From: a virus
Direction: 5' to 3' (one strand)
UHGV virus genome: UHGV-1374526
DNA: 64,000 nt
A program made the translations under genes and the position numbers. Shown one piece after another: positions 2,489 through 55,798 of the stretch. Under the pieces are notes generated by a model. That model saw only the letters and a program-made list of their open reading frames with translations. It was not told the DNA's origin and made no database searches. Numbering within the stretch: the stretch's first letter is position 1; each line of letters begins with the position of its first letter.

Positions 2489-2622
2489 AAAAAAAGGAAC
2501 CTCACCCATGTTGAAAATCAATGAGTTATGAAAGGACAACCACCTTGTCCTCGGAACCCCCGGAACCCACGTACTCCAAGGTCTCCAAAAGCACCTAACA
2601 TGCACAGCATAAGCGGATTATG

Positions 2623-2657
2623 AAAAGGACAAACCGCCCTCATCCTCTTGTCCTTTT
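2623..2657. promoter_or_regulatory. Operator-like inverted repeat AAAAGGACAA-N15-TTGTCCTTTT, with a related site AAAGGACAA-N5-TTGTCCT at 2531-2551
   Basis: Perfect 10-bp arms, with the same half-site as the 2382-2488 region. Confidence 0.6.
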
Positions 2658-2684
2658 CTCCAAGGCACAGAGTATCAACGGATT

Positions 2685-2708
2685 CCACGGATTCCGTGGG
2701 TTCCGTGG
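2685..2708. promoter_or_regulatory. Perfect 15-bp palindrome CCACGGATTCCGTGG followed by GTTCCGTGG
   Basis: An intergenic instance of the dispersed CCACGGAWTCC motif, sitting upstream of the first gene's promoter. Confidence 0.6.
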
Positions 2709-2825
2709 CACGGAGCACGGAAATCTCCCGGACAACCATGTCCCGGTACTTGTCCGGGGGTCCAGCCAAAACCGCAAAGCTCTCCATTCTTTCTGGGGAC
2801 CTACAAGAAGCTTGCAAATTTTTAC

Positions 2826-3849: not shown

Positions 3850-3862
3850 TCTCTTACCTCGA

Positions 3863-6733
3863 ATGACCACAGCACTACTCAACGATGAAACAGTTCAGAA
3901 ACTTGAACTGACCTTTACCGCACCCCGCATCTCCCAGTTGCAACTGGCCGAAGGTATGAAGAAGCTCCCCACCGGGGGTAGTTGCAACCGCGCCGTCGCC
4001 ATTGCCCTGCCGGAGGTCCTTCGCCTTCTCATGGACATGCCGATTGAGAATCGGGAACTGATGCAGTATTACTATCAGGTACAACTCTTTAAGGTGATGC
4101 AGGGAAAGCTGGACGAGAACTCGCTCTCCATGCCTCCCGTATATAAGACCATCCTCTCCAACTGGCGCAAGCATGGGCTGGAAGCTAAGGATATTAAGCC
4201 CGCGCTTCCTGCCCTCGTTCCTTCTGTCCAGTTCCTAAGCAAGCCCGGATTGTATGACTACGCCCTCGACAGCAAGGGTGCAAGGTACTATACCAACCGT
4301 AGCCTCGTCAGCGTGGATGGCACGTCGTGGCGGCATACGGGTATCTTCGGAATTGACGTGGACCTCAAGGAGAACAAGAAACATACCGCGGAAACCCTTC
4401 TCGCTACAGCGCAGGAGAAACTCCCCCAGCTGGATGGCTTCCTCTTCGCGTATGTCAGCCCCAATCAGGGGATTAAGGCGTTCTTCCAAATCTCCAACTC
4501 TACGCTCCAATACCTGAACCAGAACCCGCAGGTGGTGGAGGATGAGGGAAATGAAGAACTGGACGTGAAGCGATTGGCAAATGAACGCATCTATCTCCAC
4601 AAAGCAGTATATCATTCCCTCGCGCAGTACATCCACGAGGGAACCGGATTTGTTCTCGACATGGCCTGTACTGACCCTGCGCGGATGCAGTTCTTCTATC
4701 TGGACACCTTCATCCCCGGAACCCCCGGAACCCCTCGATTCCATGTCCCCGACATGGAGAAGGCGAAAGCGGACTACCTTCAATACGACAAGAACCGGGC
4801 GGTCAGTTACGAACTCCCGTCCGTGGCTCCCGGTGCGCCTCGCCCCAAGATATTCGAGGACTTCATTGCGTGGTTGAAGGTGAACGAGTATTACGATACC
4901 GCCGAAGGCCTCTCCCGCATGGACTATATTAAGGGGGACGGTTGCCTCTATGGCGAGTGCCCACAGTGCAAGGGAGGCAAGTCGGGCAATAGTCAGAACA
5001 CGGACCTTCGCTTCTACCCCAATCCCCAGTACCCCCGGCAGTCCTACTTCCACTGCTTCCATGCCAGTTGCAATGGCGCGAACCCGGAGATTACGTCGGT
5101 GCAATGGCTCTTCGACATGTACTTGACGGAGTTGGAGGGGGAAGCCGAGAAGAAGGCAGGGGTTGAGCCGTGGTGTCAGGACCCTCTCCTGATGAAGTGC
5201 TTCATGCAGGGAATTGCTCCGGTAAATACGAACACCCCTCTCCCGGAGGTCAGCGCGTTGAAGCTCTGCTCTCTCAAGTTCCCCTATGTCCGAAAGAACA
5301 AGGCGGGCAAGAGCATCCCCATCCTGACGGACGAGAACATCAAGTATCTTCTCCATCATGGCCTAAATCTCCGTGCCTTCCGTCGAATGAACACGAACGA
5401 ACTCCTGCTCTTGGACTTTAAGAACAGTAGGTGGTACGAGACGAGCAATACTATATTGAGCAAGATTTCAAGCTTCTGGCAGTTGATAGTTCCCGGTCAG
5501 GCGATTCCTATTCAACGCCTTCGCGAAGCCTTGTCGAGTATTGCACAGGCCAATTACTACCACCCGCTGGCTACGTTCGTCAGCTCCCGTCCTTGGGATG
5601 GGCAGGACCGTTTGCGTGCGTTCTTGGACTACCTCCCCATGAATCAGGATGTAGACATGCCCGAAGGCTGGACCCCGGACAAGTATCGGGACATGGTGCT
5701 TACGACATGGCTCATCACCCTGTGGAAGCGCGTGACCCGCCGTCTCTGCTTCCTCACCCATGTGGAATCCCAGACCAGCTTCCCGCAGAACTACATCCCC
5801 ATGCTCACTGGTGCACAGGGGCTGGGTAAAACGAAAGCCACGGACTGGTTGTTCCGTGGGGTCCGTAATGACGTGGCTAGCTCCATCGAAGGATTGAATA
5901 GTGCGGATAGCGTTGTCCAGATGGCCCGGCACTCTGCCATCATCTTGGACGAGATTGATGAAGAAGTCGCTAACAAGGCGAAGGAGAGTAAGTTGAAGCG
6001 AATCATTACCGGGGAATCTGAAAGTTGCCGTGTTGCTTTCTCCCAGTCTCCGGGAACCTATGAGTACTGCGCAAGTATCATTGGGAGTACGAACCAAGAA
6101 GAGGTATTGAGAGATACCACAGGTACTCGCCGTTACTATCCGGTAATCCTAGGTCCACGTACCATGTCGGAGGAAGAAATCCCTGCCGGGTTTAGTGCCA
6201 ATAGCTGGGCGGTGGAGAAGCTCTTTAAGCTGGACAACCAGCAACTCTGGGCACAGATTAAATACATGGTAGACGCCCATGAAGATGGCGAATACCGTTG
6301 GGCTAATCTGGAAAAAGTCGGTGCATTCCTCGCAGAACAGTATGCCAGTTGCCGAGGCAATGATACTGACCTGACGAAGTACCTCGTCCCCGTGGCTCTC
6401 AAGGATATGGACACGAAGGGAGAGAGGCTCTCCAAGAAGATACCGGGCGACTTTGGCACTATGCACAATATCCTCGCCTATGTCCGTAAGAACTTCGGAG
6501 ACATGGAGAAGGTGGAGAACTGGGCAGACGCTAACTTCAAACGAGACCTCATTGCGGCCTACGGTTCCGATTCCTTGGTCCGCCACAATGTCAAACGCAC
6601 CGAGGACCCGAGGCAAATGAAACGCTACTTCTTCATGCCGATTGACATTTGGATGAAGGAAGCAAGCGCAGAAACGAAGGCGCGGGTATATTCGCAATAT
6701 GAACACATTAAGGCACTTGCGGAAACCCTGTAA
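3863..6733 (+). CDS. Primase-helicase fusion (AEP/PrimPol-type primase, zinc-binding region, SF3/D5-like helicase)
   Basis: N-terminal GIFGIDVDLK (AEP DxD motif) and Cys/His cluster CPQCKGG...HCFHASC. C-terminal Walker A LTGAQGLGKTKA and Walker B AIILDEIDE. The start was moved to the in-frame ATG at 3863 to avoid overlapping the upstream gene. Confidence 0.75.
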   Translation: MTTALLNDETVQKLELTFTAPRISQLQLAEGMKKLPTGGSCNRAVAIALPEVLRLLMDMPIENRELMQYYYQVQLFKVMQGKLDENSLSMPPVYKTILSNWRKHGLEAKDIKPALPALVPSVQFLSKPGLYDYALDSKGARYYTNRSLVSVDGTSWRHTGIFGIDVDLKENKKHTAETLLATAQEKLPQLDGFLFAYVSPNQGIKAFFQISNSTLQYLNQNPQVVEDEGNEELDVKRLANERIYLHKAVYHSLAQYIHEGTGFVLDMACTDPARMQFFYLDTFIPGTPGTPRFHVPDMEKAKADYLQYDKNRAVSYELPSVAPGAPRPKIFEDFIAWLKVNEYYDTAEGLSRMDYIKGDGCLYGECPQCKGGKSGNSQNTDLRFYPNPQYPRQSYFHCFHASCNGANPEITSVQWLFDMYLTELEGEAEKKAGVEPWCQDPLLMKCFMQGIAPVNTNTPLPEVSALKLCSLKFPYVRKNKAGKSIPILTDENIKYLLHHGLNLRAFRRMNTNELLLLDFKNSRWYETSNTILSKISSFWQLIVPGQAIPIQRLREALSSIAQANYYHPLATFVSSRPWDGQDRLRAFLDYLPMNQDVDMPEGWTPDKYRDMVLTTWLITLWKRVTRRLCFLTHVESQTSFPQNYIPMLTGAQGLGKTKATDWLFRGVRNDVASSIEGLNSADSVVQMARHSAIILDEIDEEVANKAKESKLKRIITGESESCRVAFSQSPGTYEYCASIIGSTNQEEVLRDTTGTRRYYPVILGPRTMSEEEIPAGFSANSWAVEKLFKLDNQQLWAQIKYMVDAHEDGEYRWANLEKVGAFLAEQYASCRGNDTDLTKYLVPVALKDMDTKGERLSKKIPGDFGTMHNILAYVRKNFGDMEKVENWADANFKRDLIAAYGSDSLVRHNVKRTEDPRQMKRYFFMPIDIWMKEASAETKARVYSQYEHIKALAETL

Positions 6734-6780: not shown

Positions 6781-6856
6781 GGCCTCGTCACCGGGATTCC
6801 GGGGCGGGGCCAATCCCGTTCCGCTAATCCCCTCGAATACAACTAAGCAAACAAGC

Positions 6857-12822: not shown

Positions 12823-13590
12823 ATGGCTACTAAGAAAACAGAACACGAAACCTTGGGAATAGACCCGGGAGACGCATTGGAACTGGGAACCCCGGAACCC
12901 AATCAACTCGCAACCGCTACGGAATACCACTCTTTCGAGGGTGAGACCGACGCTTCGGACATTCAGATTCCCTACCTCAAACTGTGGCAAGCCTCTTGCG
13001 ATGAGGCTAAACTGGAAGAACCGATTGGCAGTTTGGGTGCGTTCCTTCTCAACGGTCTGGTCGTTGCCGAGCGCAATAATCCTCTTGAATGTATCGTATT
13101 GAAGGCTCGTAAGTTCTTCCGCGAATACATCCCGTACAACGAACGTCAGCCCGGCGTATATGCCAAGACGTGGAATACGAAGGAAGAGTATGAAGCAGAA
13201 GGATTTGACAAGTCGCAGGTCAACCGTGCCCTTGCCATGTGGCTACTGGTTAAGAAGCCGCAGGGTATTAAGGACGCAAGTACCACCGAGGATGACCTTG
13301 ACGCTCTCTTCACCATTGACTTCATGGGCGACCAGTGGACGCTGGCACGCTACACCCCGGAAGGTAATCAGTACACGGGCGTTGGTGCTCCCTTCATTCA
13401 GTTCATGATGTTGAAGGGGAACAAGCTCGGCTCCCTGCCCTTCCGTGTGCAGATTGGTGCACAACGCGCCGTCTCCCGCGACGGGAAGAACAGCTACGCC
13501 AAAGCGTTCCTCAAGTTCAAACCGCACCCGGTGGAAGGTCAGGTTGAAGCCATCCAAGAGATGGGCCTCCTTTCCGCGGTAACTAAGTAA
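12823..13590 (+). CDS. Hypothetical protein; by position it could be an ssDNA-annealing or SSB-type recombination partner
   Basis: A 255-aa ORF between the nuclease and the RuvC-like resolvase. No diagnostic motif was recognised. Confidence 0.4.
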   Translation: MATKKTEHETLGIDPGDALELGTPEPNQLATATEYHSFEGETDASDIQIPYLKLWQASCDEAKLEEPIGSLGAFLLNGLVVAERNNPLECIVLKARKFFREYIPYNERQPGVYAKTWNTKEEYEAEGFDKSQVNRALAMWLLVKKPQGIKDASTTEDDLDALFTIDFMGDQWTLARYTPEGNQYTGVGAPFIQFMMLKGNKLGSLPFRVQIGAQRAVSRDGKNSYAKAFLKFKPHPVEGQVEAIQEMGLLSAVTK

Positions 13591-13735: not shown

Positions 13736-14251
13736 ATGCAACTAGTAGGAGTTGACCCCGGAACCCACGGAGCCCTTGTACTCGCGGACACCCGGAGCAA
13801 GAAAATCTGGATAAAGCACATGCCAGAAGACGAAAGGGAACTGGAAATCATATTGAACAAACTGCCACGTAGCCGTCATCGTATCATGTACATTGAGAAG
13901 ATGAGCTATGCCATGAGCGGAGGCGGCAAGGTGTCCAATCCGAGAAGTAGTGGCGTATTGGGAGAGGCAACCGGGAAGGTCCTCGGTTACGCCGCGGCGG
14001 CGGGGTACACCGTCACAAAGGTTTCCCCAATCGTATGGATGCGGGCTATGGGCGCGTATGATACGGGCCTGACTGCCCGGGACCGCACGAAGTGGAAGAA
14101 CAACCTGAAACGCATCGCGATGGAGAACTTCCCCGGCGCGAAGGTGACATTGCAGAACGCGGACGCTCTTCTCATTCTATTGTACGCGTACCGGGAACTG
14201 AACGACGACCACACACTGACCCTCGACAACTGGGATATAGAAAGAATCTGA
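13736..14251 (+). CDS. RuvC-like Holliday junction resolvase
   Basis: N-terminal MQLVGVDPGTHGALVL matches the RuvC ...G(I/V)DPG motif. Later acidic residues are present. The size (171 aa) fits. Confidence 0.6.
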   Translation: MQLVGVDPGTHGALVLADTRSKKIWIKHMPEDERELEIILNKLPRSRHRIMYIEKMSYAMSGGGKVSNPRSSGVLGEATGKVLGYAAAAGYTVTKVSPIVWMRAMGAYDTGLTARDRTKWKNNLKRIAMENFPGAKVTLQNADALLILLYAYRELNDDHTLTLDNWDIERI

Positions 14252-35041: not shown

Positions 35042-35103
35042 TATAGCAGTACAACTGGCTTATCGATTTCGTACATCGAAATGTCAGGACGTTAAACTCC
35101 CAC

Positions 35104-35154
35104 GGAACCCACGGAACCCACGGCCAAATGGTCACAATGGGTTCCGTGGGTTCC
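35104..35154. promoter_or_regulatory. Perfect 16-bp inverted repeat GGAACCCACGGAACCC-N19-GGGTTCCGTGGGTTCC (hairpin), followed by two 13-bp direct repeats GTTGTGTCATACC (35158-35170, 35185-35197)
   Basis: It is built from the dispersed CCACGGAACC motif and lies between gene 34229-35041 and the promoter at 35211. It may act as a terminator and/or operator. Confidence 0.6.
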
Positions 35155-39572: not shown

Positions 39573-40323
39573 GATAAAGGAAATACAGAAGTGGGCGGGA
39601 ACTACGCCCGATGGCATCCTTGGTGATAAGACCATTGATGCTATATGGAAGAAGATACAACCCACGGAATCCACGGTTCCCGATGAACAACCCAACGATT
39701 CCCCGGAATCCGCGGGTCCCGCGGCATACGTGTCTCCGGCAGAGCTTGTCCGCAAGGGCATGGCTAAGAAGATTCTCAACATGGAGGACTACAAGATTAC
39801 AGGTCCCGATTCTCTGCGCGTAACTCGCCTCCCCTCCGGTGACGGCGGTGGCAAGTGGGAGATTGCAGGTATCTGTGATGGGATTGAACCCAAGGAATTC
39901 AATCTAATCAAATCCATGATGGACCGGGGCGACAGGGATGCGGCATGGGAGGAATGCCTCCGCTATGTTCTCGCCAATACGGAACCGTTGGTTGCCAAGG
40001 GAGTTGCAGGATGCTACGCCATTGAGTTCATGCTTCGTGACATGACCTTCAACATGGGTGTGGCGGGAACGACTAAGGTCGTCCAGCGCATGCTCGACAT
40101 TGATATTGATGGCAAGTGGGGGAAAAATACTCAAGCCAAATGGACAGACGCCATTCAATCATGGGATGAAAAGGAAGTTCTCGATTCGCTGGACCGCGCT
40201 TGTCGTGCCCGCTATTGCTCCATTGTAAGAGCCAATCCGGTGAAGGCGAAGTTCCTTACGGGCTGGTCCAACCGATGCAATGCACGGCTTGCCTACGCTC
40301 TTACTCTGTTGTCAAGGAAATAA
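39556..40323 (+). CDS. Putative endolysin / peptidoglycan-binding hydrolase
   Basis: There are two PG_binding_1-like segments (IQKWAGTTPDGILGDKTIDAIWKKIQ and IDIDGKWGKNTQAKWTDAIQ). The central domain is unassigned. It is followed by small membrane and coiled-coil genes. Confidence 0.4.
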   Translation: MTRKDKIKEIQKWAGTTPDGILGDKTIDAIWKKIQPTESTVPDEQPNDSPESAGPAAYVSPAELVRKGMAKKILNMEDYKITGPDSLRVTRLPSGDGGGKWEIAGICDGIEPKEFNLIKSMMDRGDRDAAWEECLRYVLANTEPLVAKGVAGCYAIEFMLRDMTFNMGVAGTTKVVQRMLDIDIDGKWGKNTQAKWTDAIQSWDEKEVLDSLDRACRARYCSIVRANPVKAKFLTGWSNRCNARLAYALTLLSRK

Positions 40324-41252: not shown

Positions 41253-44118
41253 CACTCCGGCCTCCAACCCACAGCCTCCGACGATACCCATTGGAACCAC
41301 GGATTCCTCGTGGCGCAATGGGTTCAGTCCTGACAGGCCAATGGGTGAGCCGATAATTAACTTTCCCACTCCTGTGGTAAAGAACGTGATGTTCTTCGTT
41401 GAGAGGATTGCCAAGAATCCCAGCGAGATTACCATTGAATTGGGAACGCCGTTCGTACCCACCGCAGGTACGACCTTCCTCCCGTTTATGCGGGATGCAG
41501 TTCTCGTGCATGTCGAACCCGTCAATGAGGCGGCGAGACAGCACGTTTATCGTTTCTACTACATGGTCCCGCCGGAACAGCAGTTCCGATATAACATTCA
41601 GGACATGAAGAAAATCCGTGACGGCTATACGTTGAAAGATACTGCCGCTACGGGTAAGTTCATGGGTCCGGATGCAGACACGGAAGAGTTGAAGGACTTC
41701 TACGAGATTACACGGGAATGGGTGGAACCCACGGATTCCGCGTATGCCCCGCTCCCCCTTGGCTCGTTTGACCCCAGCAACGAAAAGCTTGACCCTGACT
41801 TCTATGACCAGCATTTCTACACGGCATACGATGCCCAGCTGGTATATGAAGAAGTAGCCCAGTTCGAAGAGGAACACCTGCGCAAGTACTTTCGTAAGGT
41901 CATCCGTGTGTATAAAACCCTGCCGGGACCTGTGGTTAAAGAGTTCGTCCCTTATAACATTTGGCAGAAGGGAGATACGGTGTGGGATGAAGGTGGTCCG
42001 GGAACGAACCAGCCCGAATCTGAATGGGTGGCGCAGCCTGCAATTAAGTTATCAAGAGAGGTCTGGGCCGCGCCGCTTTGGCCCGTCGATGGTGGAGGGA
42101 AGGAACCGGGTCAGGCCCGCATTCCTCACATGCCCCTCCTTGAACTGGACAATAAGCCCGTTAGTGCTGGCTGGGACAAGGGCAGTTATCCGAGTACGCA
42201 GATGTACACCCTTGTATCTATGTACAAACGGAACAGTAACATTGCGGAGAAAGAGGAACAGAACAGCCTCTCCGGTAATTGTTGTAACCCTGATTCCCGT
42301 TTTGTCCGGTGCATCAACACAACCGTGACGACTAGCCAGTCCGTTGACTGGACAGCAAACGGCGATGTCCCGGCGATTGACCCCCCGGACCCCAGCGAGA
42401 ACTGTAGCCAATGGCGTGTAGATTCCTCTGTGGTAGTACATGAAGGGTACTCTCATAAGGAAACGCGAAAGAGTTGCACCACCTACGACCAGATTGATGA
42501 ATTCTGGGAATCCTCATTCGATAGGATAACCAATCAGGTCTATCCTGTACTGCGGAAGATTGTACATAATCCGAGCACTGACTTCGATACTGATTGGCAG
42601 AATGAAGGATTCACCAAATACACGGATGCCGTGGGCAATACCTACTATGGCCGTAAACTGGAATCCCCGGAATCCGTGGCTCCCATTACTATCCCGGACT
42701 CCGCTTGGGAGAAGATAGGCTACAACCTTGCGGACTTCACCGTAGAAGAGGAACCGACGTTTAATACCAAGATGCTCACCGGACTGTCCATGATTAACGG
42801 ATGGAACGACCCAGCCTATCCCCAGTTCTCTGACTACTTCGCTATGCTTGGTAGCTTCACCTCCGACAATAAGGGAGTCCCACGTGGTTCTCTCTACAAC
42901 GTCCGGTTTAAGGGTCAACGCTGGTGGCAACTCTGGATTCAAAACGAGATGCCCACAGAAATGTCTCCCGGAACTATCACCGCCACTCCCTTCTATCATG
43001 CTCCCAATCCTGACGGCCCTTGGTTCTCACAGGATGGGGTTTATAAGGTAAGGGGCGAAATGATGATTAACGATGTCCTCTATGGCGAGGGAGTTACGAG
43101 CAATGTCTGGACATTCCCCGTAGGTTTCATGGATGGTACGCAGATATATAAGCGGAAGGCCTATAACCCTGAAATGAAATTTACCACAGGGGCATTACCT
43201 ACAGGTATTGGGAAGGCGTTCACCACGGTGGAGAACGGAGAATTACTTCTCACCTGCTGGGTACTGAACAGCAATAAGGTTGCCATCAATGGGGAGATTC
43301 CCATCATGATGAATAGTACGAAGATATTCGACATCAATGTATCTAGCTCTGATGCTCCCAGTACCACGCCGGAACCGAACATAAGCACAACTACCGTGGC
43401 TAAGGCAAAGTATACCGTTGGCAATTATGTATTAGACGCGCAGGTAGTGAATAACCTCAACATCACTTACAACCGGAATAAGTTCCCATTCTTCCAATTC
43501 ACCATCACGCTCTGCTCTCTCCGCGGCAATACGTTCAAGGTCACGCAGGGGGATAAGATTCAACGCGTCGTCCTGCGCCAATGGGTGAACCCCTGTTACG
43601 CCGTAGATAGTTACATGCAGATTCCGGGAATCGGGTACTACAAAAAATATACCACGACGATGAACTACAGTTTCCCTGCCGTGTTCGGTTCGGTTAGTTG
43701 GGTTCCGTGGAATACGAGGCCCGACCTTTCTGGCAAGAATGCTGGACAGTACTTCCCGCAGACCCGGATGATGAGGGACAGTTACTCCGGCCCCTGCACC
43801 GCCGTGGTAGAGGAAGCCTTCTCCCCTGACGGAACATGGCCTAAAGGCTGGGGCCTTGGGACGTCGGTACAGTTCACGACGAACAGTGGATATTTCTCTT
43901 CACCGCTTTGCGATTACCGTCTGCCCGCATGCCTCCACGGCCCGCTGGCTATAACCGTAGTCATTGGCAATCAGGACGCCAAGTGGCTTCCCGGCGCGTT
44001 TAATACGGCCTTTCCGGGGACTACCCACACAGATTGGAAACCCGTGACCTCCTATTACGCATCCCCGTGGAACGGGGGCATGATGTGCAAGAAAGTAACC
44101 ATTTATCCACCCAGTTAA
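41236..44118 (+). CDS. Large virion structural protein (tail/adaptor-like)
   Basis: It is ~960 aa, rich in W/Y/N/T, and sits before the ejection-protein cluster. The start was moved to the internal ATG at 41236. Confidence 0.4.
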   Translation: MALIPNTPASNPQPPTIPIGTTDSSWRNGFSPDRPMGEPIINFPTPVVKNVMFFVERIAKNPSEITIELGTPFVPTAGTTFLPFMRDAVLVHVEPVNEAARQHVYRFYYMVPPEQQFRYNIQDMKKIRDGYTLKDTAATGKFMGPDADTEELKDFYEITREWVEPTDSAYAPLPLGSFDPSNEKLDPDFYDQHFYTAYDAQLVYEEVAQFEEEHLRKYFRKVIRVYKTLPGPVVKEFVPYNIWQKGDTVWDEGGPGTNQPESEWVAQPAIKLSREVWAAPLWPVDGGGKEPGQARIPHMPLLELDNKPVSAGWDKGSYPSTQMYTLVSMYKRNSNIAEKEEQNSLSGNCCNPDSRFVRCINTTVTTSQSVDWTANGDVPAIDPPDPSENCSQWRVDSSVVVHEGYSHKETRKSCTTYDQIDEFWESSFDRITNQVYPVLRKIVHNPSTDFDTDWQNEGFTKYTDAVGNTYYGRKLESPESVAPITIPDSAWEKIGYNLADFTVEEEPTFNTKMLTGLSMINGWNDPAYPQFSDYFAMLGSFTSDNKGVPRGSLYNVRFKGQRWWQLWIQNEMPTEMSPGTITATPFYHAPNPDGPWFSQDGVYKVRGEMMINDVLYGEGVTSNVWTFPVGFMDGTQIYKRKAYNPEMKFTTGALPTGIGKAFTTVENGELLLTCWVLNSNKVAINGEIPIMMNSTKIFDINVSSSDAPSTTPEPNISTTTVAKAKYTVGNYVLDAQVVNNLNITYNRNKFPFFQFTITLCSLRGNTFKVTQGDKIQRVVLRQWVNPCYAVDSYMQIPGIGYYKKYTTTMNYSFPAVFGSVSWVPWNTRPDLSGKNAGQYFPQTRMMRDSYSGPCTAVVEEAFSPDGTWPKGWGLGTSVQFTTNSGYFSSPLCDYRLPACLHGPLAITVVIGNQDAKWLPGAFNTAFPGTTHTDWKPVTSYYASPWNGGMMCKKVTIYPPS

Positions 44119-44122: not shown

Positions 44123-44866
44123 ATGGCATTTATTACCAAATCCTATTTGACCTATCGCAATGTTTGTGACGAGCTTTGTATGCTTATCACAAACCAGCCG
44201 CCATCCAAGTCCAATGTTGACTTCCGTCGTATATTGAAGGAAGCGCAGAACCTCCTGCTCAATGAGGCCACGGTATCTCCGGATTCCGTGGAAACCTTGG
44301 ACTTTGAAGGAATCCCTCGCGGGGGTTCTATCTCCCTGCCCGAAGAGTATGATAGTATTGTCGAGGCATGGACACCTAGTGGCAAGAAATACAACATCAT
44401 TGACCGGGCCATGTTCGAAAGCAACACTTGGTTCCGTTCCGAATATCCCAAGCACGACAGCGGTTATCATGCTATCATGCTGGACATGGGACTGAATGAA
44501 CAGAACCTCCGTACCTACTCGGTATTGTCTGGCAGTAACGGCATCAACGATAATCCTACGAGCAACGTCATGACGGTTTCGGCACGGTGCGCATTGCGCG
44601 GCCTGTCCCTTAACATTTATGACGACGCGGCATGGGAGGACAAGGAGGTTCGTATCTACCCCGGATGTCTTCCCGCATTGAAGGCGATGATGCTGGCCGT
44701 GGTCTATAACGAGCAGGGCAATACCCAAATGGGGACGGACAGCTACGGCCTTGCCGTCAAATACCTGAACGACCACCTGCGCAAATATCGTCAGGGCACA
44801 TATCAGGCTCCGAACATTATTCAGAACGGCGGCATCATGCAGTGCCCCGGACTTAACCTCATGTAA
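44123..44866 (+). CDS. Putative virion protein
   Basis: A 247-aa ORF in the structural gene train. Confidence 0.4.
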   Translation: MAFITKSYLTYRNVCDELCMLITNQPPSKSNVDFRRILKEAQNLLLNEATVSPDSVETLDFEGIPRGGSISLPEEYDSIVEAWTPSGKKYNIIDRAMFESNTWFRSEYPKHDSGYHAIMLDMGLNEQNLRTYSVLSGSNGINDNPTSNVMTVSARCALRGLSLNIYDDAAWEDKEVRIYPGCLPALKAMMLAVVYNEQGNTQMGTDSYGLAVKYLNDHLRKYRQGTYQAPNIIQNGGIMQCPGLNLM

Positions 44867-49100: not shown

Positions 49101-52100
49101 GGAAGATGGCCGGATGGAGAAGCAAGCCATTTAAGGAGATGAACACGAAGGAAAAGACGTTTGCCGTTGCTTCCTATCTGTACAGCCAGAGCAAGGCCGT
49201 AGTGGAAGGAGCCACCGAAGAACTGGCAGACGAATTCCAAGAGTGGGCGTTTACCGAACTGGTGAAGAACGGAGAAATCTCCGAATCCTCTATTGCCACT
49301 ACTGACCAAGTGATTAGCACAGGCATGAAGATTGCTTTCCTCGGAGGTATCGGCGGCTACGTTGGTAGCCACTTAGCTGGTGAAGGGAACATACGTTTCC
49401 AAACCGAAGCCGCTCCCACTCTCGATGTAAAGGATGCTACTTCCATGCTACCGGATATTACGAAAGATGCGAGCAACATCATCGAGGAAACGGGCAAAGC
49501 CATTACCAAAAACAATGTGCCGGAAAGCTTGGTAGAAACCGGAAAGAAGGTTATCGAGATTGCCGGGGAGAAGGGAGATGCCGCGGAAGTTGCCCGCGAA
49601 TGGGTGGACAAATCCATTGCCCATGAAAGTCTGGCAGTCTCCGATGAAACCCGCAAGGCGTGGGTGGAAGGAGCAACCCGTATGGGCATCAGCAACTTCA
49701 CCCAGTTCCGCAACCTAGTGGAACGGGCCTCCGAAATATATACCTATGAGGGCAGTGCCGCGGCAAGCTCATTCATGGCAGAAGCCATTAACGACCTGCC
49801 CAATACCCTGTCATTCCCAAATAAGGAAAACCTCGACACCATGCGCACCATGCTTTCGGAGGCCCTTGATGCTATGGGAGACCGGGTTCAGGTTATCGAA
49901 GTAGACGACGACCTGTCCATCATTACTACAGGGGACGAGGACCTTGATGCCGCCATTAACGTTATTAACGGATTGACGGAAGCCGCGGCTACCACGGAAC
50001 CCAAGGAATCCCCGGCTACCGCGGAACCCACGGAATCCCCGGTAGCTATTGCCCGGAAGGAGAGGGACAATGCTATTGCCCCCATCACTGCTATGGTAGA
50101 GACGGGAGTAGTTACCCCAGAAGCTACCGCTTCCGTGGATAACATGGATGCGGCAATCACCTCGTTCGACCCCAACACCGGGGCATGGCTCTCATCCGGT
50201 TCACCTCTGGACCGCGGCGCGAAGCTCGTCTCCCTGAACGAGATGACCGGGATTAACGCCCCCATGATTACCAGCAACACGGGAGAAACCGTTGTCATCG
50301 CTCCGCACGCAAGCATGTACAACACAGGTGAGGGAGGGACACCCAGCACCAAGTGGGGGGACAAGGTCTCCGCTCTCAATCTCCCGACGGATGGGACTGG
50401 CGCAAATGCCTACGGCACGCTTCGCGGCCTTCAAGTTAATGCCTCCCCCGCACAGGCCGCGGCCATTGATGGAGTGCTCCGCGCACTGCATGCCGCTGGT
50501 TTGGACGTCGCTATCCGTGCAACCAATGCCCCGGCGAACATCTCTTCCCCTGCCAGTATCACCTACATGAACGGCACGGACGGGAAGCTTGTCGGCGGTG
50601 TCATTGACCTGTACGTGAACCGGGATAACCCGATTGAAAGCGTAACGGGAACGGTACTACACGAAGTCATCCACCTCATTGACCGTCATCTTCGTACCAC
50701 CAACACGGACTATTCCCAGCGGATGGATAGGATTAGAAGCGCGATTGCAGAGAACTACAACAACATTGTCGATAGTCTCTCCGCTATGTATGACGCTAGC
50801 GTGGACATCAATGAGATGAACGCCATCGCCGCGCTCGCTTCCGACCTCAACTACGGTCTCCGCGGTGCGGACGAATTTGCCAGTGTCGCGTTCTCCAATC
50901 CTGTCATGAACTTCATGGTAGCGGAAGCTAGCGGAGACAATATCACCATCACGGATTTGGCTCGCTATGCCGAAGCGGCGGGAGGCCGGAAGCCCGTGCA
51001 CGTGCGCCTCGTCGAATGGCTTAAAGATTTGATTAGGGACATCAAAGATACTGCGGACGATATGGACGGAACCACCGCCGCAGAACGCGTGGCTGAATGG
51101 GATTCCTATGTGGCCCGCGTCGCGGACATGACCCCCGGCAAGTGGTTCGATATGCCTCGCACTCCGTCATGGAAAGTAGATGATACGGATTATACTATGG
51201 GCAACGGGGTAGATTATTTTAACCCGATGGCCTATGAGACCGACATGACCCGGAGATTGTCCTTCGGCCTTGGCGCAGAAATCATTGGCACGAAGGCCGG
51301 GAACTGGGTAACTAGTATTAAGAACGTATGGCAAGGCGTGTCTAAGGGCTTGGACAAAGCAGGCATCAATGTTAAGTCCGAGGAACAGAAGCTGGTTGTG
51401 CTGGAACAAATGGCCAATGTTAATGCGGCGTATGAACGCAGTATTAAACGCATTGACAAAATTGGTGATATGCTTCAACGCCGTGCGGATAATCTGGGCT
51501 GGGATGCCGCTACGCGAAAGAAATGGAGCAAGTCCATTCTTGACATGTCGGGGAATATGGACAACGATATTGACCCTGAAACTGTTGCACGCATTAACGC
51601 AGAGGCTCAAGCAGAAGTTCGTCAGCATGAACAGACCCGCGACTTCCGTATCGCGTTGGCTAAGAAGACTGTCACCGATGCCGTCAATAGGCACGCGGAA
51701 GCGGTGCGTCTGGCTAACTCCCTTGCGCTTAATAGTGAAGGGCGATTGGAAATCAACGACATGATGCGCCGGATTAAAGACATGAGCGGCAAGGGATATG
51801 GAGCCATGCTGGACAAGCAGGTAGCTCTCCCCATGCTCTCCCAGCAGATTCACAAATCTCTCTCCGACCTTGGCTCTCGTATCTCCGCGACGGGGGATGC
51901 CAATCTGGATATCACCTACTTTGGCCTTGCCCGCGACACGCAAAACTATCTCGCGGATATGATTAACGAAGTGGATAGTCCCTTCTCTATGGATGAACTT
52001 CTGGACAGGTGGTCCAACCTTCGCAATGACTTCCTCTATGCGGAGAGTACAAACCATCCCGTCATCGCTCCTATGATTCAGGACATCGCTAAGGCACGGG

Positions 52101-55100: not shown

Positions 55101-55798
55101 TGAACCCCTCGTTCGGCAGTGGACACACGTGGCAAGCCCTTGAACGTGTCGCGACGGTTGCCAATAAAAAGATTCCCGTCTACGGCTGGTTAGTCAAGTC
55201 TGGTAAACAAATGTTTAGTGATACGCCCGACATGAGTGCCGAGGCATACGGGTTACAGACCTTTGGTACTGGTCTCCGTCGTCCGAAGGATTTGACCGAA
55301 GCCCTTGCCGCCGGGTTAAAGAATGCCAACGCGGCAGTCACTAAGTCGAAGCGAATGAGCGTCCTTCGTCCGGACTTCTACAAGAGAATGGAATCCGGGG
55401 TGGATGTGGAATCTATGGAAGCCGTGGAAACCGCGGATGCCGTGAAGAATTTCACCAAGCTAGTCAATAGTGTCCGGTTTGTTACGGAAATTACAAACAT
55501 GCTTGACCCCGCTCTGCGGAAGGAAGTTCTGGCTTCCGCGATTGAGAGTTCCGGTATGAGTGCCAAGACCTACGGCGCGGCCATGAAAGGCATCATGCCC
55601 TACATCATTAGCCCGCAAGCAGGACGTGAGGCTATCGCGAAACTCAACCGCGAATTGCAGAAGTCTAATACCACGGACGAGGGCAAACGCCTAATCGAAG
55701 AGCAGAAGAAACTCATTATCAACCTCATGAGGAAGGGTAGCATTCAGATTGATGGGGCATTGAGTGCGGAGGAAATTCATAATCGGATGAAGCAGTAG
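46103..55798 (+). CDS. Giant virion/ejection protein (3231 aa) with zincin-like HExxH motif
   Basis: It is a single uninterrupted ORF. HEVIH lies within TGTVLHEVIHLIDRH at ~50650-50700. There are long helical regions and Gly/Ala-rich segments, and the gene sits after the tail genes. No polymerase catalytic motif was recognised by eye. Confidence 0.6.
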   Translation: MAIDFSTANMSDFTPKSGSSIAREQRAAERHAAWQETQAQKQQDREQKALDREQRLAEKKQTRAEKGATATADYDTFLFKSVDDFAEKQKKDAEHANNVEWQNKSRAHTEQEWKTAEENKALDILNKGNRGYSFEGIDYMKDYVDRGEDALVDLKAASRGDSEAIKKLANNTGLTVVSSSELTPTHPTFLSRSGFGSGEDGNPVVTEKFLAIAADRNRNAKAVAKGIANTMEKARKDYLNSNLDVGTGKPTAQAIETAPIAYTAEEIESVINTIRREDIGNYRAAKALYDKHRSSSTEGVQKKTPSQTSVGELGVGEFSDSAPSFTGNVFAELANLSKSPSKMFQLVRDYGDYLSRSTEDIESPESATADAKQLHTDQAKLISKKEKPVEDRIREQIETADKIVRRLEEDYTGLPYLELRDALLNPEAAASALLSLVPGADMDAIRARAKVITEEVRRQKDRPLTVENPEQIGMSEAILEAVATRFPGVPKSALRQAGVTKLIQDYTAKATPKGTLMDAVKGALANYRSTAGQIADVLTFQPDNSVGKYADPMSLMEWRKGTRRGSWWYGMPGGPSFEVGPERLKEYMAQYHIESTRDALNSLSHAARMGDLGVGRGSLFAYNPHTKEVDTNATLELNPNALYNDKLMDQSIEALRASGADEKLINRTIEKFQNLRKKSAQELVKDNMALDETLGTLRDTWLGSGLQFNPVLTESMKHLDKYLSFKNFYNEQKEAGKSDEDILSAWQEKGQATFDSVLRGLQIGTHKAIDLGTSTAYGALLFAQNAVGSRAAMEHTRTLWDQLNKKQEAEAELVRGNILADYTAEIANLGYQMVATAGAGKVGGLAGRALTRTALNKFMKATANVVAKRAEALVPAARPGLAGRLSGTIQRNLDNLAALNLERAGAGAGVNLSIISQVAPNAYSDIFYTIYDREMEGKEPTAENTNRAQSIANMRALFGAALVSTGSTLINNRAGMDSFMRKIVGAKNLRGQSPFQTLERKMAGWRSKPFKEMNTKEKTFAVASYLYSQSKAVVEGATEELADEFQEWAFTELVKNGEISESSIATTDQVISTGMKIAFLGGIGGYVGSHLAGEGNIRFQTEAAPTLDVKDATSMLPDITKDASNIIEETGKAITKNNVPESLVETGKKVIEIAGEKGDAAEVAREWVDKSIAHESLAVSDETRKAWVEGATRMGISNFTQFRNLVERASEIYTYEGSAAASSFMAEAINDLPNTLSFPNKENLDTMRTMLSEALDAMGDRVQVIEVDDDLSIITTGDEDLDAAINVINGLTEAAATTEPKESPATAEPTESPVAIARKERDNAIAPITAMVETGVVTPEATASVDNMDAAITSFDPNTGAWLSSGSPLDRGAKLVSLNEMTGINAPMITSNTGETVVIAPHASMYNTGEGGTPSTKWGDKVSALNLPTDGTGANAYGTLRGLQVNASPAQAAAIDGVLRALHAAGLDVAIRATNAPANISSPASITYMNGTDGKLVGGVIDLYVNRDNPIESVTGTVLHEVIHLIDRHLRTTNTDYSQRMDRIRSAIAENYNNIVDSLSAMYDASVDINEMNAIAALASDLNYGLRGADEFASVAFSNPVMNFMVAEASGDNITITDLARYAEAAGGRKPVHVRLVEWLKDLIRDIKDTADDMDGTTAAERVAEWDSYVARVADMTPGKWFDMPRTPSWKVDDTDYTMGNGVDYFNPMAYETDMTRRLSFGLGAEIIGTKAGNWVTSIKNVWQGVSKGLDKAGINVKSEEQKLVVLEQMANVNAAYERSIKRIDKIGDMLQRRADNLGWDAATRKKWSKSILDMSGNMDNDIDPETVARINAEAQAEVRQHEQTRDFRIALAKKTVTDAVNRHAEAVRLANSLALNSEGRLEINDMMRRIKDMSGKGYGAMLDKQVALPMLSQQIHKSLSDLGSRISATGDANLDITYFGLARDTQNYLADMINEVDSPFSMDELLDRWSNLRNDFLYAESTNHPVIAPMIQDIAKARAEAKQIIREANDDFHAATKRAGVTRAGVATPAGSVWLKRDNAILNARRQKQAEYMAKRDAAEQWLLSQGVVGQLVHNVIADSRKEIAATQISIAKLIGDSRMADNAAEMNYLHRTYMAVGRHAGDFTRTMKDIIANPNGELAQKYDGLTKLLQEAAISHAEAHQRELSENVSQVLDNMQALAALHDELKLPLVSAPTGASSNYKLLFEGVAKNYRTREILDFIQNNFGQVQMLADLRDGHNISAIYNKAMSMIAQADYRTKSKMTERKETLDMNARDSFLADVFSSLPGKTIADKIGSLQSPASVASEVNKAIPTIPTSAIDQIWNTPNMNAAERLDKTLNLLRGQAGVLMRMNGMGNVISATDLKALQYPELSRLAVNDAMKAIDEVLSKKRTNEDALAQRKRLPEWQRKAMYELSDLTIGDAIGTLQNTLSMQSKIAVNQLLADEYTSVLKAQGVVVPPNSTNRTSDMVEISLKNTKNALNGMYADKDVADAIYRIYRPSDDILNSRTDDYKEVREYWQKSGKGQGWWSKAGGLANLSVLIASPNSTLRNLYGTVAQMTHAGALPFTGSKEIAKLIGDWSQMYKLRKLSRGKDLASQASADRLLAAEDRYNEKIRYWQELGLLDAGQGEFLRNVWKSDEFSKMAGEFEEVNEDSFFKLAEALNEKQERTKGEVAKDVAKTAGKVVAWPIKTMSFAYGLPDAAAKIALFTNQRAIADTQLKVQLARAKGKANPNARDQILLDASQTTQSWDAYVDRYTANMVKSLLPTGSRTPSWVKTLNIVAAPFFMFQYHTFQSVAYNLGHAIGEGVDGVWAINNGMKKEGAYLLGRAILRIAGSAVTIGATSAVSSWVARQIIASVLGDDDDHKIIDDAEVMRKLADSGLIPDYDKFGDLIGIIDMKRHEFEYLTLEYMNPFKTIRVLAKPLPSLFMDMDVDKWGMNKVAELKNLLENTVLEESLLLNTATELFNEEDFNYKHSLSGDESVNVLPAVGNAILLAAGLNPSFGSGHTWQALERVATVANKKIPVYGWLVKSGKQMFSDTPDMSAEAYGLQTFGTGLRRPKDLTEALAAGLKNANAAVTKSKRMSVLRPDFYKRMESGVDVESMEAVETADAVKNFTKLVNSVRFVTEITNMLDPALRKEVLASAIESSGMSAKTYGAAMKGIMPYIISPQAGREAIAKLNRELQKSNTTDEGKRLIEEQKKLIINLMRKGSIQIDGALSAEEIHNRMKQ

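Follow-up and report, generated by a model that had tools for sequence, protein, structure and literature searches.

Here, we identified an 11-mer, CCMCGGAWYCC (i.e., CC[A/C]CGGA[A/T][C/T]CC), that is approximately 60 times more common than expected by chance in UHGV-1374526, the genome (~70 kb) of a virulent-looking gut phage that probably has Akkermansia as its host. All counts refer to the window, that is, the whole 64-kb stretch of DNA that was analysed, unless stated otherwise. We tentatively favour, with a probability of about 45%, the reading that this 11-mer is a lineage-specific word, fitted into permissive coding frames, that is recognised by a protein binding or processing DNA in a sequence-specific manner. 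According to this proposal, an ongoing force at the level of the DNA would maintain a hyper-abundant double-stranded word at its density, the most likely force being recognition by such a protein of the phage-host system, and the binding of this protein might create recombination or nicking hotspots, organise the genome or provide dispersed regulation.

The window contains 33 exact matches (19 on the plus and 14 on the minus strand) between 2558 and 62969, on average about 5 copies per 10 kb, whereas dinucleotide shuffles contain 0.48 on average and never more than 3. A first-pass annotation of this DNA had claimed at least 20 instances, beyond chance, between 2551 and 55460. The excess and the dispersal over the window were confirmed, with copies extending past 55460, and all examples cited there were present (2685, the hairpin at 35104-35154, PTESTD at 30601, PTESTVP at 39662, 49992-50038, 21609/21618 and 4714/4723). 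As few one-mismatch neighbours accompany the exact copies (33 versus ~11.5 expected), the 11-mer is sharply defined. Within a family of sequences with a 9-bp period, GGNNNCC-NN with the junction CC[A/C]CGG, it is the sharpest, and it is palindromic only in its GGAWTCC core and in some 15-mers (2685, 31180 and 42665); the GGAACCC variant is not palindromic. While 26 of the 33 copies lie inside genes (18 sense and 8 antisense), the seven non-coding copies represent a 2.8-fold higher density (1.25 versus 0.45 per kb). The core has no polarity (sense:antisense 37:42 for CCACGG, 29:28 for CACGGA and 15:12 for CCACGGA), and skew is confined to the codon-linked GGAACCC (21:6).

The excess exceeds every null model that we built. 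Against the 18 sense and 8 antisense genic copies, synonymous shuffling within genes gave 0.88 and 0.33, a codon shuffle that fixed the two bases following each codon gave 1.67 and 0.81, and an MCMC shuffle that held proteins, codon usage and the avoided restriction sites of the phage constant (these sites being forbidden) gave 0.83 and 0.47, or ~1.3 in total. Since shuffles that preserve proteins, codons and site avoidance remove the excess, the 11-mer is a DNA-level word and not a product of codon usage or linker peptides alone. The excess asserted in the first-pass annotation survives all codon-shuffled nulls, and among the explanations offered there, a DNA-level target fits best.

Table 1. 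Loci of the 11-mer and its 9-nt units in the window, with their settings and their behaviour in related genomes
Feature	Position	Strand	Setting	Fold, or state in relatives
Three tandem 9-nt units TCGGAACCC CCGGAACCC ACG	2549..2571	+	Poorly coding left region; exact at 2558, one-mismatch at 2549	
Palindromic cluster ACGGATTCCACGGATTCCGTGGGTTCCGTGG	2676..2710	both	Exact copies 2685+, 2689-, 2698-; upstream of TTGACA promoter-like site at ~2826	CCACGGATTCCGTGG at 2685, palindromic without mismatch over 15 nt; RNA fold -20.3 kcal/mol, z -2.3
Two tandem copies (CCCCGGAAC x2.3)	4714..4733	+	Primase-helicase gene 3755-6733, PGTPGTP; copies at 4714/4723	Perfect copy shifted by one unit in sister-clade L021
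One copy	6794..6804	-	~10 nt downstream of promoter-like site 6753-6780; leader/first codons of ORF 6779-7246, which weakly matches a transcriptional regulator	Loop-proximal part of hairpin 6780-6812 (-26.8 kcal/mol, z -2.7); unchanged in 26/27 relatives versus 11.3 expected from flanks
Single copy	12890..12900	+	ORF 12823-13590, GTPEP	Polymorphic in close relatives: two linked synonymous changes, ACT CCC <-> ACC CCG
Single copy	13756..13766	+	RuvC-like resolvase gene 13736-14251, DPGTHG	Absent in sister clade (GGAGTCC/GGTGTCC instead)
Two tandem copies, then degenerate 9-nt units	21609..21628 (21609/21618)	+	ORF 21515-22732, PDSTDST	Unit swap GGATTCC <-> GGAACCC; one 9-nt deletion
Single antisense copy	28048..28058	-	ORF 27758-28150, GDSGG	Unchanged in 22/22 relatives
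Unit array AGTGAACCC ACGGAATCC ACGGACACC	30592..30620	+	ORF 30489-31514, SEPTESTDT; exact copy 30601	Cassette-like exchange of units and 9-nt indels
Inverted pair CCACGGAATCCGGGG ... GGATTCCGGGG	31180..31224	both	ORF 30489-31514 (ATESGDEESKDEDSG); exact 31180+, 31184-, 31214-	Much variation; sole coding locus with significant fold (z -3.5)
Intergenic hairpin, left arm (CCCACGGAA)x2.8, right arm GGGTTCCGTGGGTTCC	35099..35154	both	Between stop codon at 35041 and promoter-like site 35211-35238	-39.7 kcal/mol, z -6.2; identical in 44-54 of 46-54 relatives (flanks 82-90% identical)
Two copies and degenerate units	39662..39715	+	N-terminal linker, endolysin-like ORF 39556-40323, PTESTVP ... SPESAGP	Unit swaps and 9-nt indels; partly retained in sister clade
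Single copy	41297..41307	+	971-aa ORF, TTDSS	Same peptide in sister clade as ACC ACG GAC AGT (GAC AGT <-> GAT TCC)
Single copy	41725..41742 (site 41729)	+	971-aa ORF, EPTDSA	Longest nucleotide-identical codon run of its gene, across all 8 sister-clade loci
Palindromic 15-mer CCCCGGAATCCGTGG	42665..42679	both	Variable segment of 971-aa ORF, SPESVA	
Single antisense copy	43700..43710	-	971-aa ORF, VPW	No copy in sister clade
Single antisense copy	44281..44291	-	ORF 44123-44866, SPDSVE	
Seven 9-nt units (27-nt period x2.4)	49978..50042	+	3231-aa ORF (AATTEPKESPATAEPTESP); exact 49992, 50028; 49992-50038 translates as TTEPK..AEPTESP	13 or more different indels of 9 or 18 nt
Single antisense copy	55390..55400	-	Near end of 3231-aa ORF, MESGV	
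Copy, sense to gene	59578..59588	-	Minus-strand NAD-dependent DNA ligase gene 59009-61054, IPGTQG	
Copy, sense to gene	60848..60858	-	NAD-dependent DNA ligase gene 59009-61054, SPESK	
Copy, sense to gene	62959..62969	-	Minus-strand ORF 62523-63206, PRNPE	

Genes host the word only where the encoded peptide is a harmless linker. Half of the genic copies (13/26) are sense in the frame xCC-MCG-GAW-YCC and six more are antisense with GAW-TCC in frame, so that 19 encode Glu/Asp-Ser/Pro; four sense copies are in a Pro-Gly-Thr frame and three in other frames. The frame bias described earlier is real. Because adjacent copies are 9 bp (three codons) apart, genes can tolerate them in tandem as repeats of a tripeptide, which read as Thr/Pro-Glu/Asp-Ser/Pro within segments rich in Pro, Ser, Thr and acidic residues. 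Coding sequence takes up the word mostly as xCC-(A/C)CG-GA(A/T)-(T/C)CC, giving these tripeptides in segments that are often N-terminal.

Inverted copies form stable and conserved hairpins at three intergenic places, including a terminator position, in agreement with an earlier description of the intergenic copies as palindromic. The hairpin at 35099-35154 is probably a transcription terminator, judging from its G+C-rich stable stem-loop that follows a stop codon and precedes the next promoter-like site. Its arms (35104-35120 and 35138-35154) are 100% complementary over 17 nt, giving a perfect 17-bp stem, and enclose a 17-nt loop. The sequence after the stem is TTCGTTGTGT, and a terminator consensus scan made no call because the loop exceeds 8 nt and fewer than five of eight bases are T. 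At this position, the sister clade carries a perfect hairpin of unrelated sequence followed by ATTTTAT, which implies that the 11-mer itself is dispensable there.

The 11-mer is present in every relative whose DNA polymerase is 81-99% identical, and it is absent from relatives with 30% identity and from Chantilly, the one Akkermansia phage available, which is temperate and also lacks the site avoidance described below. Between clades, positions turn over and density stays: the sister clade (71% identical) retains 3 of 12 sites of the window, and in the reverse direction 3 of 19 are shared; one sister-clade locus (L021) has 20 copies in 21.9 kb. A more distant clade has its own word, CCAGGGAWYCC (7 copies versus 0.08 expected, in frames that encode QGT, PRDSA and QGIR). 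The window has no copy of this word, which lacks the 9-nt period and differs by G for C at position 4, thereby containing CCAGG.

Recognition by a protein is supported by the occurrence on both strands and in several frames, the non-coding preference, the sharpness and the turnover at a kept density, as well as by multi-nucleotide synonymous changes that create the word at 12890 and 41297. Non-coding copies conserved far above their flanks (mismatch rate among relatives 0.021 versus 0.192) and the nucleotide-identical run at 41729 also support this reading, as do the excess over all shuffles, the presence in close but not in remote relatives and the related word of the distant clade. On the other hand, most coding sites are not kept between clades, relatives vary loosely in the inner triplet (with arrays of GGTACCC, GGGAACC, GGATACC and GGCACCC), the word is not needed at 35100, and conservation in coding copies is modest, synonymous positions being only ~2-fold more conserved than in flanks (0.080 versus 0.149) and first and second codon positions being more variable than background (0.095/0.087 versus 0.053/0.039). 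Moreover, arrays of five to nine units look more like slippage than selected sites, and a copying process could also yield sharpness and concerted changes. No candidate reader protein was identified, ORFs 6779-7246, 32403-32756 and 36378-36749 having only weak regulator- or initiator-like matches.

The first-pass annotation had described neither the 9-bp period nor how variable the loci are in relatives and how their positions turn over from clade to clade. In near-identical relatives, 9-nt indels and swaps of units cluster at the tandem-unit loci, where the tripeptide repeats slip. Among relatives with at least 85% identity, coding indels of 9 nt (42) were as frequent as those of 6 nt (37) and far more frequent than those of 12 nt (9), 20 of the 42 falling in the 2.7% of the genome that matches GGNNNCCNNGG. 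The main alternative, which is somewhat unlikely, needs no reader protein: the 9-nt repeat would propagate itself and stay uniform by slippage in arrays and by microhomology-mediated template switching or short-patch gene conversion between dispersed copies (concerted evolution, or 'molecular drive'), selection merely purging those that damage proteins and so leaving linker frames and non-coding DNA, with the hairpins incidental. Consistent with this are the indel concentration, the replacement of units as cassettes without intermediates (30570-30650, 31160-31250 and 39640-39740), the linked multi-base changes at 12890 and 41297 and the dispensability at the terminator position. The same is true of the long arrays in relatives, i.e., (GGGAACCAC)x7, (GGATACCAC)x9 and the non-coding (GGGGTTCCG)x5-6, and of a non-coding 9-nt array, (ACGGGTTCA)x6, at 1-55 of the window. 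Identity breakpoints among relatives within 60 nt of motif loci are enriched ~2-fold (15 versus 6.9, P ~0.002), which also points in this direction but is confounded by the hypervariability of these loci. However, lone copies occur in conserved, structured segments (DPGTHG of RuvC, IPGTQG of the ligase and EPTDSAY of the 971-aa protein), and the distant-clade word lies without a 9-nt period in ordinary protein sequence and in several frames. To our knowledge, no phage process homogenises about 35 dispersed sequences of 11-27 nt across unrelated genes.

Restriction-site avoidance in the window is extreme: GATC and CTCAG are absent (~499 GATC expected), GCAGC and CCWGG occur once each, GAGTC/GACTC occur three times, and five 6-mer palindromes are at zero. 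As a consequence, codon choice is fixed for Glu-Ser (GAA-TCN in 56/56), Asp-Ser (GAT-TCN in 38/39) and Asp-Pro (GAC-CCN in 51/51), and with GAGTC/GACTC and GATC avoided, only AAT, ATT or AAC can stand as the inner triplet of the 11-mer. Avoidance thus shapes the allowed variant (GAG/GAC-TC and CCWGG being forbidden) without creating the excess. The distant clade has 260 CCWGG sites, and the window clade, having almost none, cannot hold the CCAGGGAWYCC version. It is very unlikely that a methyltransferase of host or phage that recognises part of the word, together with biased short-patch mismatch repair as suggested for HIP1, or else restriction escape, drives near-matches to the exact word. 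The extreme avoidance with its fixed codons, the loss of the CCAGG site between the words of the two clades and the precedent of HIP1, a hyper-abundant word with links to methyltransferases (PMC4390886), are in line with such a process. The MCMC shuffle that respects avoidance nevertheless leaves hardly any copies, Chantilly shows neither word nor avoidance, and no methyltransferase was matched in about 70 ORF scans within the window, which covers 64 kb of the ~70-kb genome. We also know of no common methylation target shared by the CCACGG and CCCCGG variants. The earlier suggestion of methylation or restriction evasion found no confirmation in these results.

Arms of the (CCACGGAAY)2-3 type, as in the 35099-35154 hairpin, are also found in bacterial inverted-repeat elements of 64-336 nt, with many copies among the matches listed, in Gemmatimonadales, several Gammaproteobacteria (Oceanisphaera, Marinobacter and MAGs) and Opitutaceae; a genome scan revealed no clear host enrichment among the matches listed. 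These look-alikes, together with two relatives (L098/L054) whose homology to the window begins exactly at the left arm of this hairpin, would suit a small mobile palindromic element (MITE-, REP- or RPE-like) inserting into genes in frame and intergenically. Such an element is scarcely probable, considering that coding copies and motif-less alleles differ by substitutions or single 9-nt units. The bacterial look-alikes were accompanied by neither a target-site duplication nor a transposase, no autonomous copy was seen, and no Rfam family matched. For coding copies, the mini-insertion proposed earlier was likewise not supported when orthologues were compared, gain and loss having occurred by substitution (12890 and 41297) or 9-nt slippage. 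A rather improbable but broader reading is that the 11-mer is the genome-wide signal of an undescribed sequence-specific DNA-binding or nicking protein common to this phage lineage. The word would then track the host restriction landscape (CCAGGGAWYCC where CCWGG would be allowed, CC[A/C]CGGAWYCC where it would not), mark recombination or repair hotspots and, arranged as (CCACGGAAY)3, be the element of the undescribed multi-copy hairpins of Gemmatimonadota, Gammaproteobacteria and Verrucomicrobiota. If true, it would belong to a widespread, unnamed pair of DNA element and reader.

Pure protein-level selection, in which flexible Pro/Thr/Glu/Ser linkers are favoured and the word is only their preferred codons, is extremely improbable: the Glu/Asp-Ser/Pro frames, the enriched peptide context (P 2.2-fold, S 1.55-fold, and E, D and T ~1.4-fold), the T-x-[T/P/S] reading of all long arrays of relatives and the proximity of 8 of 19 coding loci to a start codon (no more than 160 nt away) agree with it and with the PTES-like linkers suggested earlier, but it is contradicted by the codon-shuffle nulls (~1 copy versus 26 with proteins held fixed), the use of the full word in 13 of only 38 [TP][ED][SP] peptides, the seven non-coding copies with their 2.8-fold density, the Pro-Gly-Thr-frame and antisense copies, and the other frames in the distant clade.

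Among known systems, the 11-mer resembles the USS of Pasteurellaceae and the DUS of Neisseria, inverted pairs of which also act as terminators. It shares with them the frame bias, the linker context, the sharp consensus and a hairpin at a terminator position; its excess is of orders of magnitude with few near-matches, and its frames are concentrated at poorly conserved residues. In the published account, USS and DUS are described as short exact words in huge excess, mostly genic and encoding tolerated tripeptides in particular reading frames at poorly conserved residues (PMC2817400). However, a virulent-looking phage is not a competent bacterium, so that molecular drive through DNA uptake could not act in it as in such a host, and the tandem 9-bp phasing with copy-number slippage of the phage word is not known from USS/DUS. 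Cyanobacterial HIP1 (GCGATCGC) is likewise an over-represented word, in 15- to 300-fold excess within and between ORFs, whose function has stayed obscure for decades; methyltransferase or repair links and nucleoid organisation have been put forward (PMC5861425, PMC4390886). Unlike HIP1, a perfect 8-mer palindrome with sites conserved between genomes, the 11-mer is only partly palindromic and its sites turn over across diverged genomes.

Dispersed operators, such as the stoperators of cluster A mycobacteriophages, the C1 operators of P1 and the inverted repeats of phiC31, comprise tens of 13-17-bp sites with one phage reader. These sites lie mainly between genes or at their ends, follow the direction of transcription and occur in temperate phages with a known repressor. 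The 11-mer does not fit this type, with 26 of 33 copies intragenic and in both orientations, a core lacking strand bias, and no repressor or integrase found in the ORFs scanned within the window; nor, given the absent strand skew of the core, does it fit a Chi/KOPS-type polar sequence. Rickettsia palindromic elements, REP/BIME and MITEs share with the 11-mer the palindromic character, some in-frame copies within ORFs and the bacterial look-alikes with the same arms, but they are whole insertions of 100-150 bp, whereas the coding copies of the phage span 11-27 nt and come about through substitutions or the slippage of units; this class was rejected on the nature of its alleles and the lack of a transposase or target duplication. 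Coding minisatellites and contingency repeats are similar in their 9-nt unit, low-complexity peptides and in-frame copy-number change in near-identical genomes, the period of 9 and the polymorphic copy number, up to nine units in relatives, being typical of them. In contrast to such repeats, the same unit recurs singly, on both strands and also in non-coding DNA at more than 20 unrelated loci, for which local slippage alone is insufficient.

The word CCMCGGAWYCC (either strand counted; CCACGGAATCCACGGAACCC is a stretch of DNA that bears it) occurs 33 times in the window against 0.48 copies expected, and the curated genes contain 18 sense and 8 antisense copies. A synonymous shuffle inside genes that kept the proteins gave 0.88 and 0.33 copies, respectively, a shuffle also retaining the two bases following each codon gave 1.67 and 0.81, and an MCMC shuffle also barring new avoided sites gave 0.83 and 0.47. 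The first-pass annotation had placed the motif far above chance, which all three shuffles bear out; they also rule out codon usage, the simple explanation it had considered, and codon-pair bias. The examples cited there are all present, and the motif also extends into the minus-strand genes, to position 62969. The word is sharply defined: besides the 33 exact copies there are 33 one-mismatch copies (~11.5 expected). It is used in full by 13 of the 38 [T/P][E/D][S/P] peptides of the proteome, and its density is 1.25 per kb in non-coding DNA versus 0.45 per kb in genes. A compositional signature of the host was rejected, as the temperate Akkermansia phage Chantilly has 1 copy in 37 kb and lacks the 9-nt periodic pattern. 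The word is a real feature at the level of DNA.

In a position matrix around GGAWYCC, GG and CC return every 9 bases on both flanks. Because of this period, the 11-mer spans a whole 9-nt unit and the end of an adjoining one. Shuffles yield 1.8 matches to the general pattern GGNNNCCNNGGNNNCC where the window has 38, and Chantilly has none. Units join as CC[A/C/G]CGG in tandem and as CCG[T/G]GG when inverted.

Coordinates of repeat copies, promoter-like sites and recognisable genes (window positions unless a handle is given)
Feature	Location
Tandem copies	2549-2571, 4714-4733, 21609-21628, 30592-30620, 35099-35123, 49978-50042
Inverted copies	2676-2710, 31180-31224, 35099-35154, 42665-42679
Promoter-like sites	6753, 12719, 16744, 2113, 35211 and others
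Primase-helicase	3755-6733
Family-A DNA polymerase	8100-10154
Helicase and exonuclease genes	
RuvC-like resolvase	13736-14251
Large terminase	14253-16091
HNH-like protein	16778-17542
Endolysin-like protein	39556-40323
ThyX	
NAD-dependent ligase	59009-61054
Long arrays in the phage relative L087	L087:14269-14338, L087:18641-18719
Bacterial inverted-repeat elements, arms GCCACGGAAYCCACGGAAYCCACGGA	L232, L243-L245, L254, L271, L278, L298 and others

The frame bias reported from the sequence was confirmed: the GA(A/T)-(T/C)CC frame is shared by 19 of the 26 coding copies, and the Pro-Gly-Thr frame is used by 4. Pro (2.2x), Ser (1.55x) and Glu/Asp/Thr (~1.4x) are over-represented in the 24 residues around the copies, where Lys, Met, Cys and Leu are scarce, and for 8 of 19 coding loci a start codon is no more than 160 nt away (3.2 expected, P ~0.01). 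Because 9 bp make three codons, tandem sites are able to persist inside genes as repeated tripeptides, which then slip. In relatives, every long array reads NCC ACG GNN, giving TGT, TDT, TAP or TES repeats; two arrays in structural genes of L087, (GGGAACCAC)x7 encoding (TGT)n and (GGATACCAC)x9+ encoding (TDT)n, are longer than those of the window. Collagen-like Gly-X-Y repeats were rejected, as the arrays read T-x-[T/P/S] with Gly in only some of them. Chi- or KOPS-like polarity was discarded on account of the strand symmetry of the core words (CCACGG, 37 sense and 42 antisense). CACGGAA fits the ANGGA of a CsrA/RsmA-type sponge, but the sense-strand bias is missing, which argues against a role in mRNA. 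When viral contigs were searched for CCACGG recurring every 9 nt, most matches were unrelated single local arrays, so that the search did not discriminate.

Several short sites are avoided to an extreme in the whole window (both strands counted), including GATC (0 vs ~499 expected), CTCAG/CTGAG (0 vs 128), GCAGC/GCTGC (1 vs 135), CCAGG/CCTGG, i.e. CCWGG (1 vs 135) and GAGTC/GACTC (3 vs 128), and five 6-mer palindromes (ATTAAT, CAATTG, CTTAAG, ATGCAT and CCATGG) are at 0. Such extreme avoidance implies a putative host repertoire of about ten restriction specificities. The sister clade likewise has 0 GATC and 0 GCAGC, and the avoidance of GATC and CCWGG is absent from the distant-clade relative L107 and from Chantilly. 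As a consequence of avoidance, Glu-Ser is GAA-TCN (56/56), Asp-Ser GAT-TCN (38/39) and Asp-Pro GAC-CCN (51/51), and the inner triplet of the word is AAT, ATT or AAC, never ATC. It is because avoidance is so strong that a null model respecting it matters; avoidance accounts for the inner triplets but, under the MCMC shuffle, not for the 20-fold excess.

IMG/VR sample 3300045988 includes about 40 genomes of 62-71 kb. Dozens of relatives were found in IMG/VR, which fall into three tiers: a close tier with 88-96% nucleotide identity to the window, a sister clade with about 71-75%, and a distant clade (L107 and L108) whose 971-aa protein has 47% amino-acid identity. Word density is 1.4-9 copies per 10 kb in all relatives out to the sister clade (in L021, for example, 20 copies vs 0.14 expected), and relatives whose polymerase is 30% identical have no copy. 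Of the 12 window sites that can be aligned with the sister clade, only 3 carry the word there too, and of 19 sites in the sister clade only 3 carry it in the window; thus, density is maintained although individual sites come and go. Motif loci are the variable spots among genomes otherwise >90% identical: 20 of 42 coding 9-nt indels sit in the 2.7% of the genome matching GGNNNCCNNGG, 9-nt indels are disproportionately common compared with those of 12 nt, and alignments show entire units gained, lost or exchanged without intermediates. At 12890 and 41297 the word toggles by linked, protein-neutral changes (ACT CCC to or from ACC CCG, and GAC AGT to or from GAT TCC, respectively). In the close tier, the mismatch at third codon positions is 0.080 inside the word versus 0.149 in its flanks, and first and second codon positions inside the word vary more than the genome average. 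The longest nucleotide-identical codon run across all 8 sister-clade copies of the 971-aa gene is 41725-41742.

In the distant clade, CCMCGGAWYCC is absent from L107 and L108, and CCAGGGAWYCC occurs 7 times in 22.5 kb (0.08 expected), with the same three endings as the window word (AACCC, AATCC and ATTCC). This variant has 0 copies in the window, whose clade could not carry CCAGG because CCWGG is essentially absent there; the distant clade has 260 CCWGG and 92 GATC sites. The variant is not 9-nt periodic and lies in ordinary protein in varied frames (Q-G-T, P-R-D-S-A and Q-G-I-R). That a word differing at a single position is retained over such divergence, and in different peptides, argues more strongly than any other observation for maintenance of the DNA sequence as such.

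The description of intergenic copies as palindromes or hairpins was correct, as the loci at 35099-35154, 6794 and 2676-2710 all fold. The first has a 17-bp perfect stem (-39.7 kcal/mol, z -6.2), is identical in 44-54 of 46-54 relatives with flanks there 82-90% identical, and is placed between a stop codon and the next promoter-like site, TTGACC-N16-TATGAT. It probably acts as a terminator. Because the sister clade has a different perfect hairpin at the same position, followed by ATTTTAT, the word appears not to be required for this role and to be merely stem material in the window clade. The copy at 6794 is inside a stable, conserved hairpin shortly downstream of a promoter-like site, and the 2676-2710 cluster forms the third hairpin. 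Beyond these three intergenic loci, one coding locus folds better than shuffles; 6 of 7 coding loci tested do not, so that a general RNA or DNA hairpin function was rejected. A promoter or terminator element was also rejected, as the word is missing from most intergenic regions, whose promoters are of the TTGACA type and whose terminators are ordinary.

These observations point to a continuing force that keeps the word and fits it into coding sequence where it is least harmful. The first-pass annotation had listed a DNA-level target among its explanations, and this one stands, given that the excess survives protein-preserving shuffles and that the variant word persists in the distant clade. 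The most likely maintaining force would be recognition by a sequence-specific protein (probability roughly 0.45), which is favoured by the sharpness of the word, its symmetry between strands, its non-coding preference, its turnover at constant density and the clade-specific variant. If such a protein marked hotspots of recombination, nicking or repair, this would explain, too, why the motif loci are locally hypervariable and why identity breakpoints are two-fold enriched near them, an association confounded by the hypervariable loci themselves and not relied on here. PDB sequence searches for a reader with the ORFs at 2866-3849, 6839-7246 and 12823-13590 returned nothing, and Pfam and PHROGs searches gave only weak regulator-like matches. 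Candidate readers would be the ORFs at 6779-7246, 32403-32756, 36378-36749 and 2866-3849 and the HNH-like protein.

The main rival, which we regard as rather unlikely, is that there is no reader, slippage and template switching being what spreads the units and keeps them uniform. In its favour are the long arrays found in relatives, the arrays in non-coding DNA (L021:2792-2880 and window 1-55) and the fact that the terminator position can do without the word. Enrichment driven by a methyltransferase or by repair is improbable, considering that no methyltransferase was matched among the window ORFs scanned and that the two main variants of the word share no known methylation target. Slightly less probable still is insertion of a mobile element, proposed earlier as a mini-insertion, which is contradicted for coding copies, whose alleles differ by substitution or by swap, gain or loss of units. 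Selection for PTES-like linkers alone is very improbable, as the protein-preserving codon shuffles contradict it.

Hyper-abundant words such as USS/DUS, Chi and HIP1 have each revealed, or still hide, a genome-wide DNA transaction. To our knowledge, no comparable word is known in a virulent-type phage, and the word described here is a new form of this phenomenon in a novel gut phage lineage. Uptake sequences of competent bacteria are reported to be fitted into coding sequence where they are least harmful (PMC2817400), and on that account the phage word is similar in being a DNA-level word placed in genes where harm is least. It also resembles HIP1, itself an unresolved case (PMC5861425, PMC4390886). 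What is seen here is a sharp 11-mer whose density is constant, whose positions turn over and whose sequence shifts between clades alongside restriction avoidance, and which moulds dozens of protein linkers. Should there be a reader protein, it would represent a new phage DNA-protein system; if not, this would be a clean natural case in which slippage and template switching carry a short sequence through coding DNA and create hypervariable linkers in structural proteins. Either way, the motif and the extreme avoidance of sites offer practical markers of both this uncultured gut phage lineage and the restriction repertoire of its host.

The window covers 64 kb of a phage genome of ~70 kb, is ~94% coding, and has + strand genes between ~2.9 and 56.9 kb and - strand genes beyond. 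Most structural genes lack a PHROGs match, as does the 3231-aa ORF (46103-55798). A row of small paralogous ORFs (37530-38468) corresponds to a 229-nt tandem repeat (x3, 71% identity) at 37754-38431. Among 50,697 deposited phage records, the sole nucleotide match was Chantilly (ON453895; 82% identity over ~1 kb), between window 18823-19806 and a hypothetical 752-aa gene. This match suggests Akkermansia as the host and likely reflects gene exchange between phages sharing one host.

Strong sigma-70-like promoters, (T)TCTTGACA-N16-TATAGT/TACATT, precede operons, with 11 occurrences each of TTCTTGAC and CTTGACAT, and ordinary hairpin-plus-T-tract terminators are present (e.g. 13660-13697 and about 28230). 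Directly upstream of the 35211 promoter-like site, a 27-nt unit, TTGTGTCATACCCACTAGCGTGTGCGG (window 35155-35200), is found in 1-3 copies across relatives and is a possible operator; TTGTGTCATAC also adjoins (about 2775) the non-coding motif array of L021, (GGGGTTCCG)x5-6, which is likewise longer than the 9-nt arrays of the window and could also form a G-quadruplex. The left end (1-600) is dense in non-coding repeats, namely (ACGGGTTCA)x6 at 1-55, an iteron-like 19-nt unit, TAAGTCCAGCCTAACTTT, x10.8 at 103-303, and a 42-nt unit x3.3 at 451-587 whose every copy holds a TTGCTATAAT promoter-like site; there is also an AT-rich (TA)n tract at 2411-2462. The region is a possible origin or site of early regulation. 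The word copies were rejected as origin iterons, the iteron-like array being separate and the 2.4-2.9 kb region poorly conserved among relatives. Six independent IMG/VR contigs of 60-69 kb (L007, L016, L024, L027, L030 and L031) terminate within ~350 nt of the 2676-2710 cluster, by arithmetic on match coordinates, which may hint at a physical genome end or else mean that assemblies broke where the sequence is hypervariable or forms hairpins.

The word matched no known RNA family, and a literature search on its strings returned nothing relevant. When 185,579 bacterial and archaeal genomes were scanned with CCACGGAAYCCACGGAAYCC, at least 120 matches were obtained, compared with an estimated ~4 by chance. 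Among the matches listed, many are inverted pairs, GCCACGGAAYCCACGGAAYCCACGGA ... TCCGTGGRTTCCGTGGRTTCCGTGGC, of 64-336 nt with many copies per genome, in a Gemmatimonadales MAG, Gammaproteobacteria (Oceanisphaera, Marinobacter and MAGs) and Opitutaceae, and others are coding T-E-P or T-E-S repeats. No transposase was found beside these look-alikes, and no Rfam family or publication was found for them. The arms of the phage hairpin are the same as theirs, and the likeness could be due to a shared reader, a mobile hairpin element or convergence. In one MAG (L240), look-alike elements adjoin REP-like palindromes.
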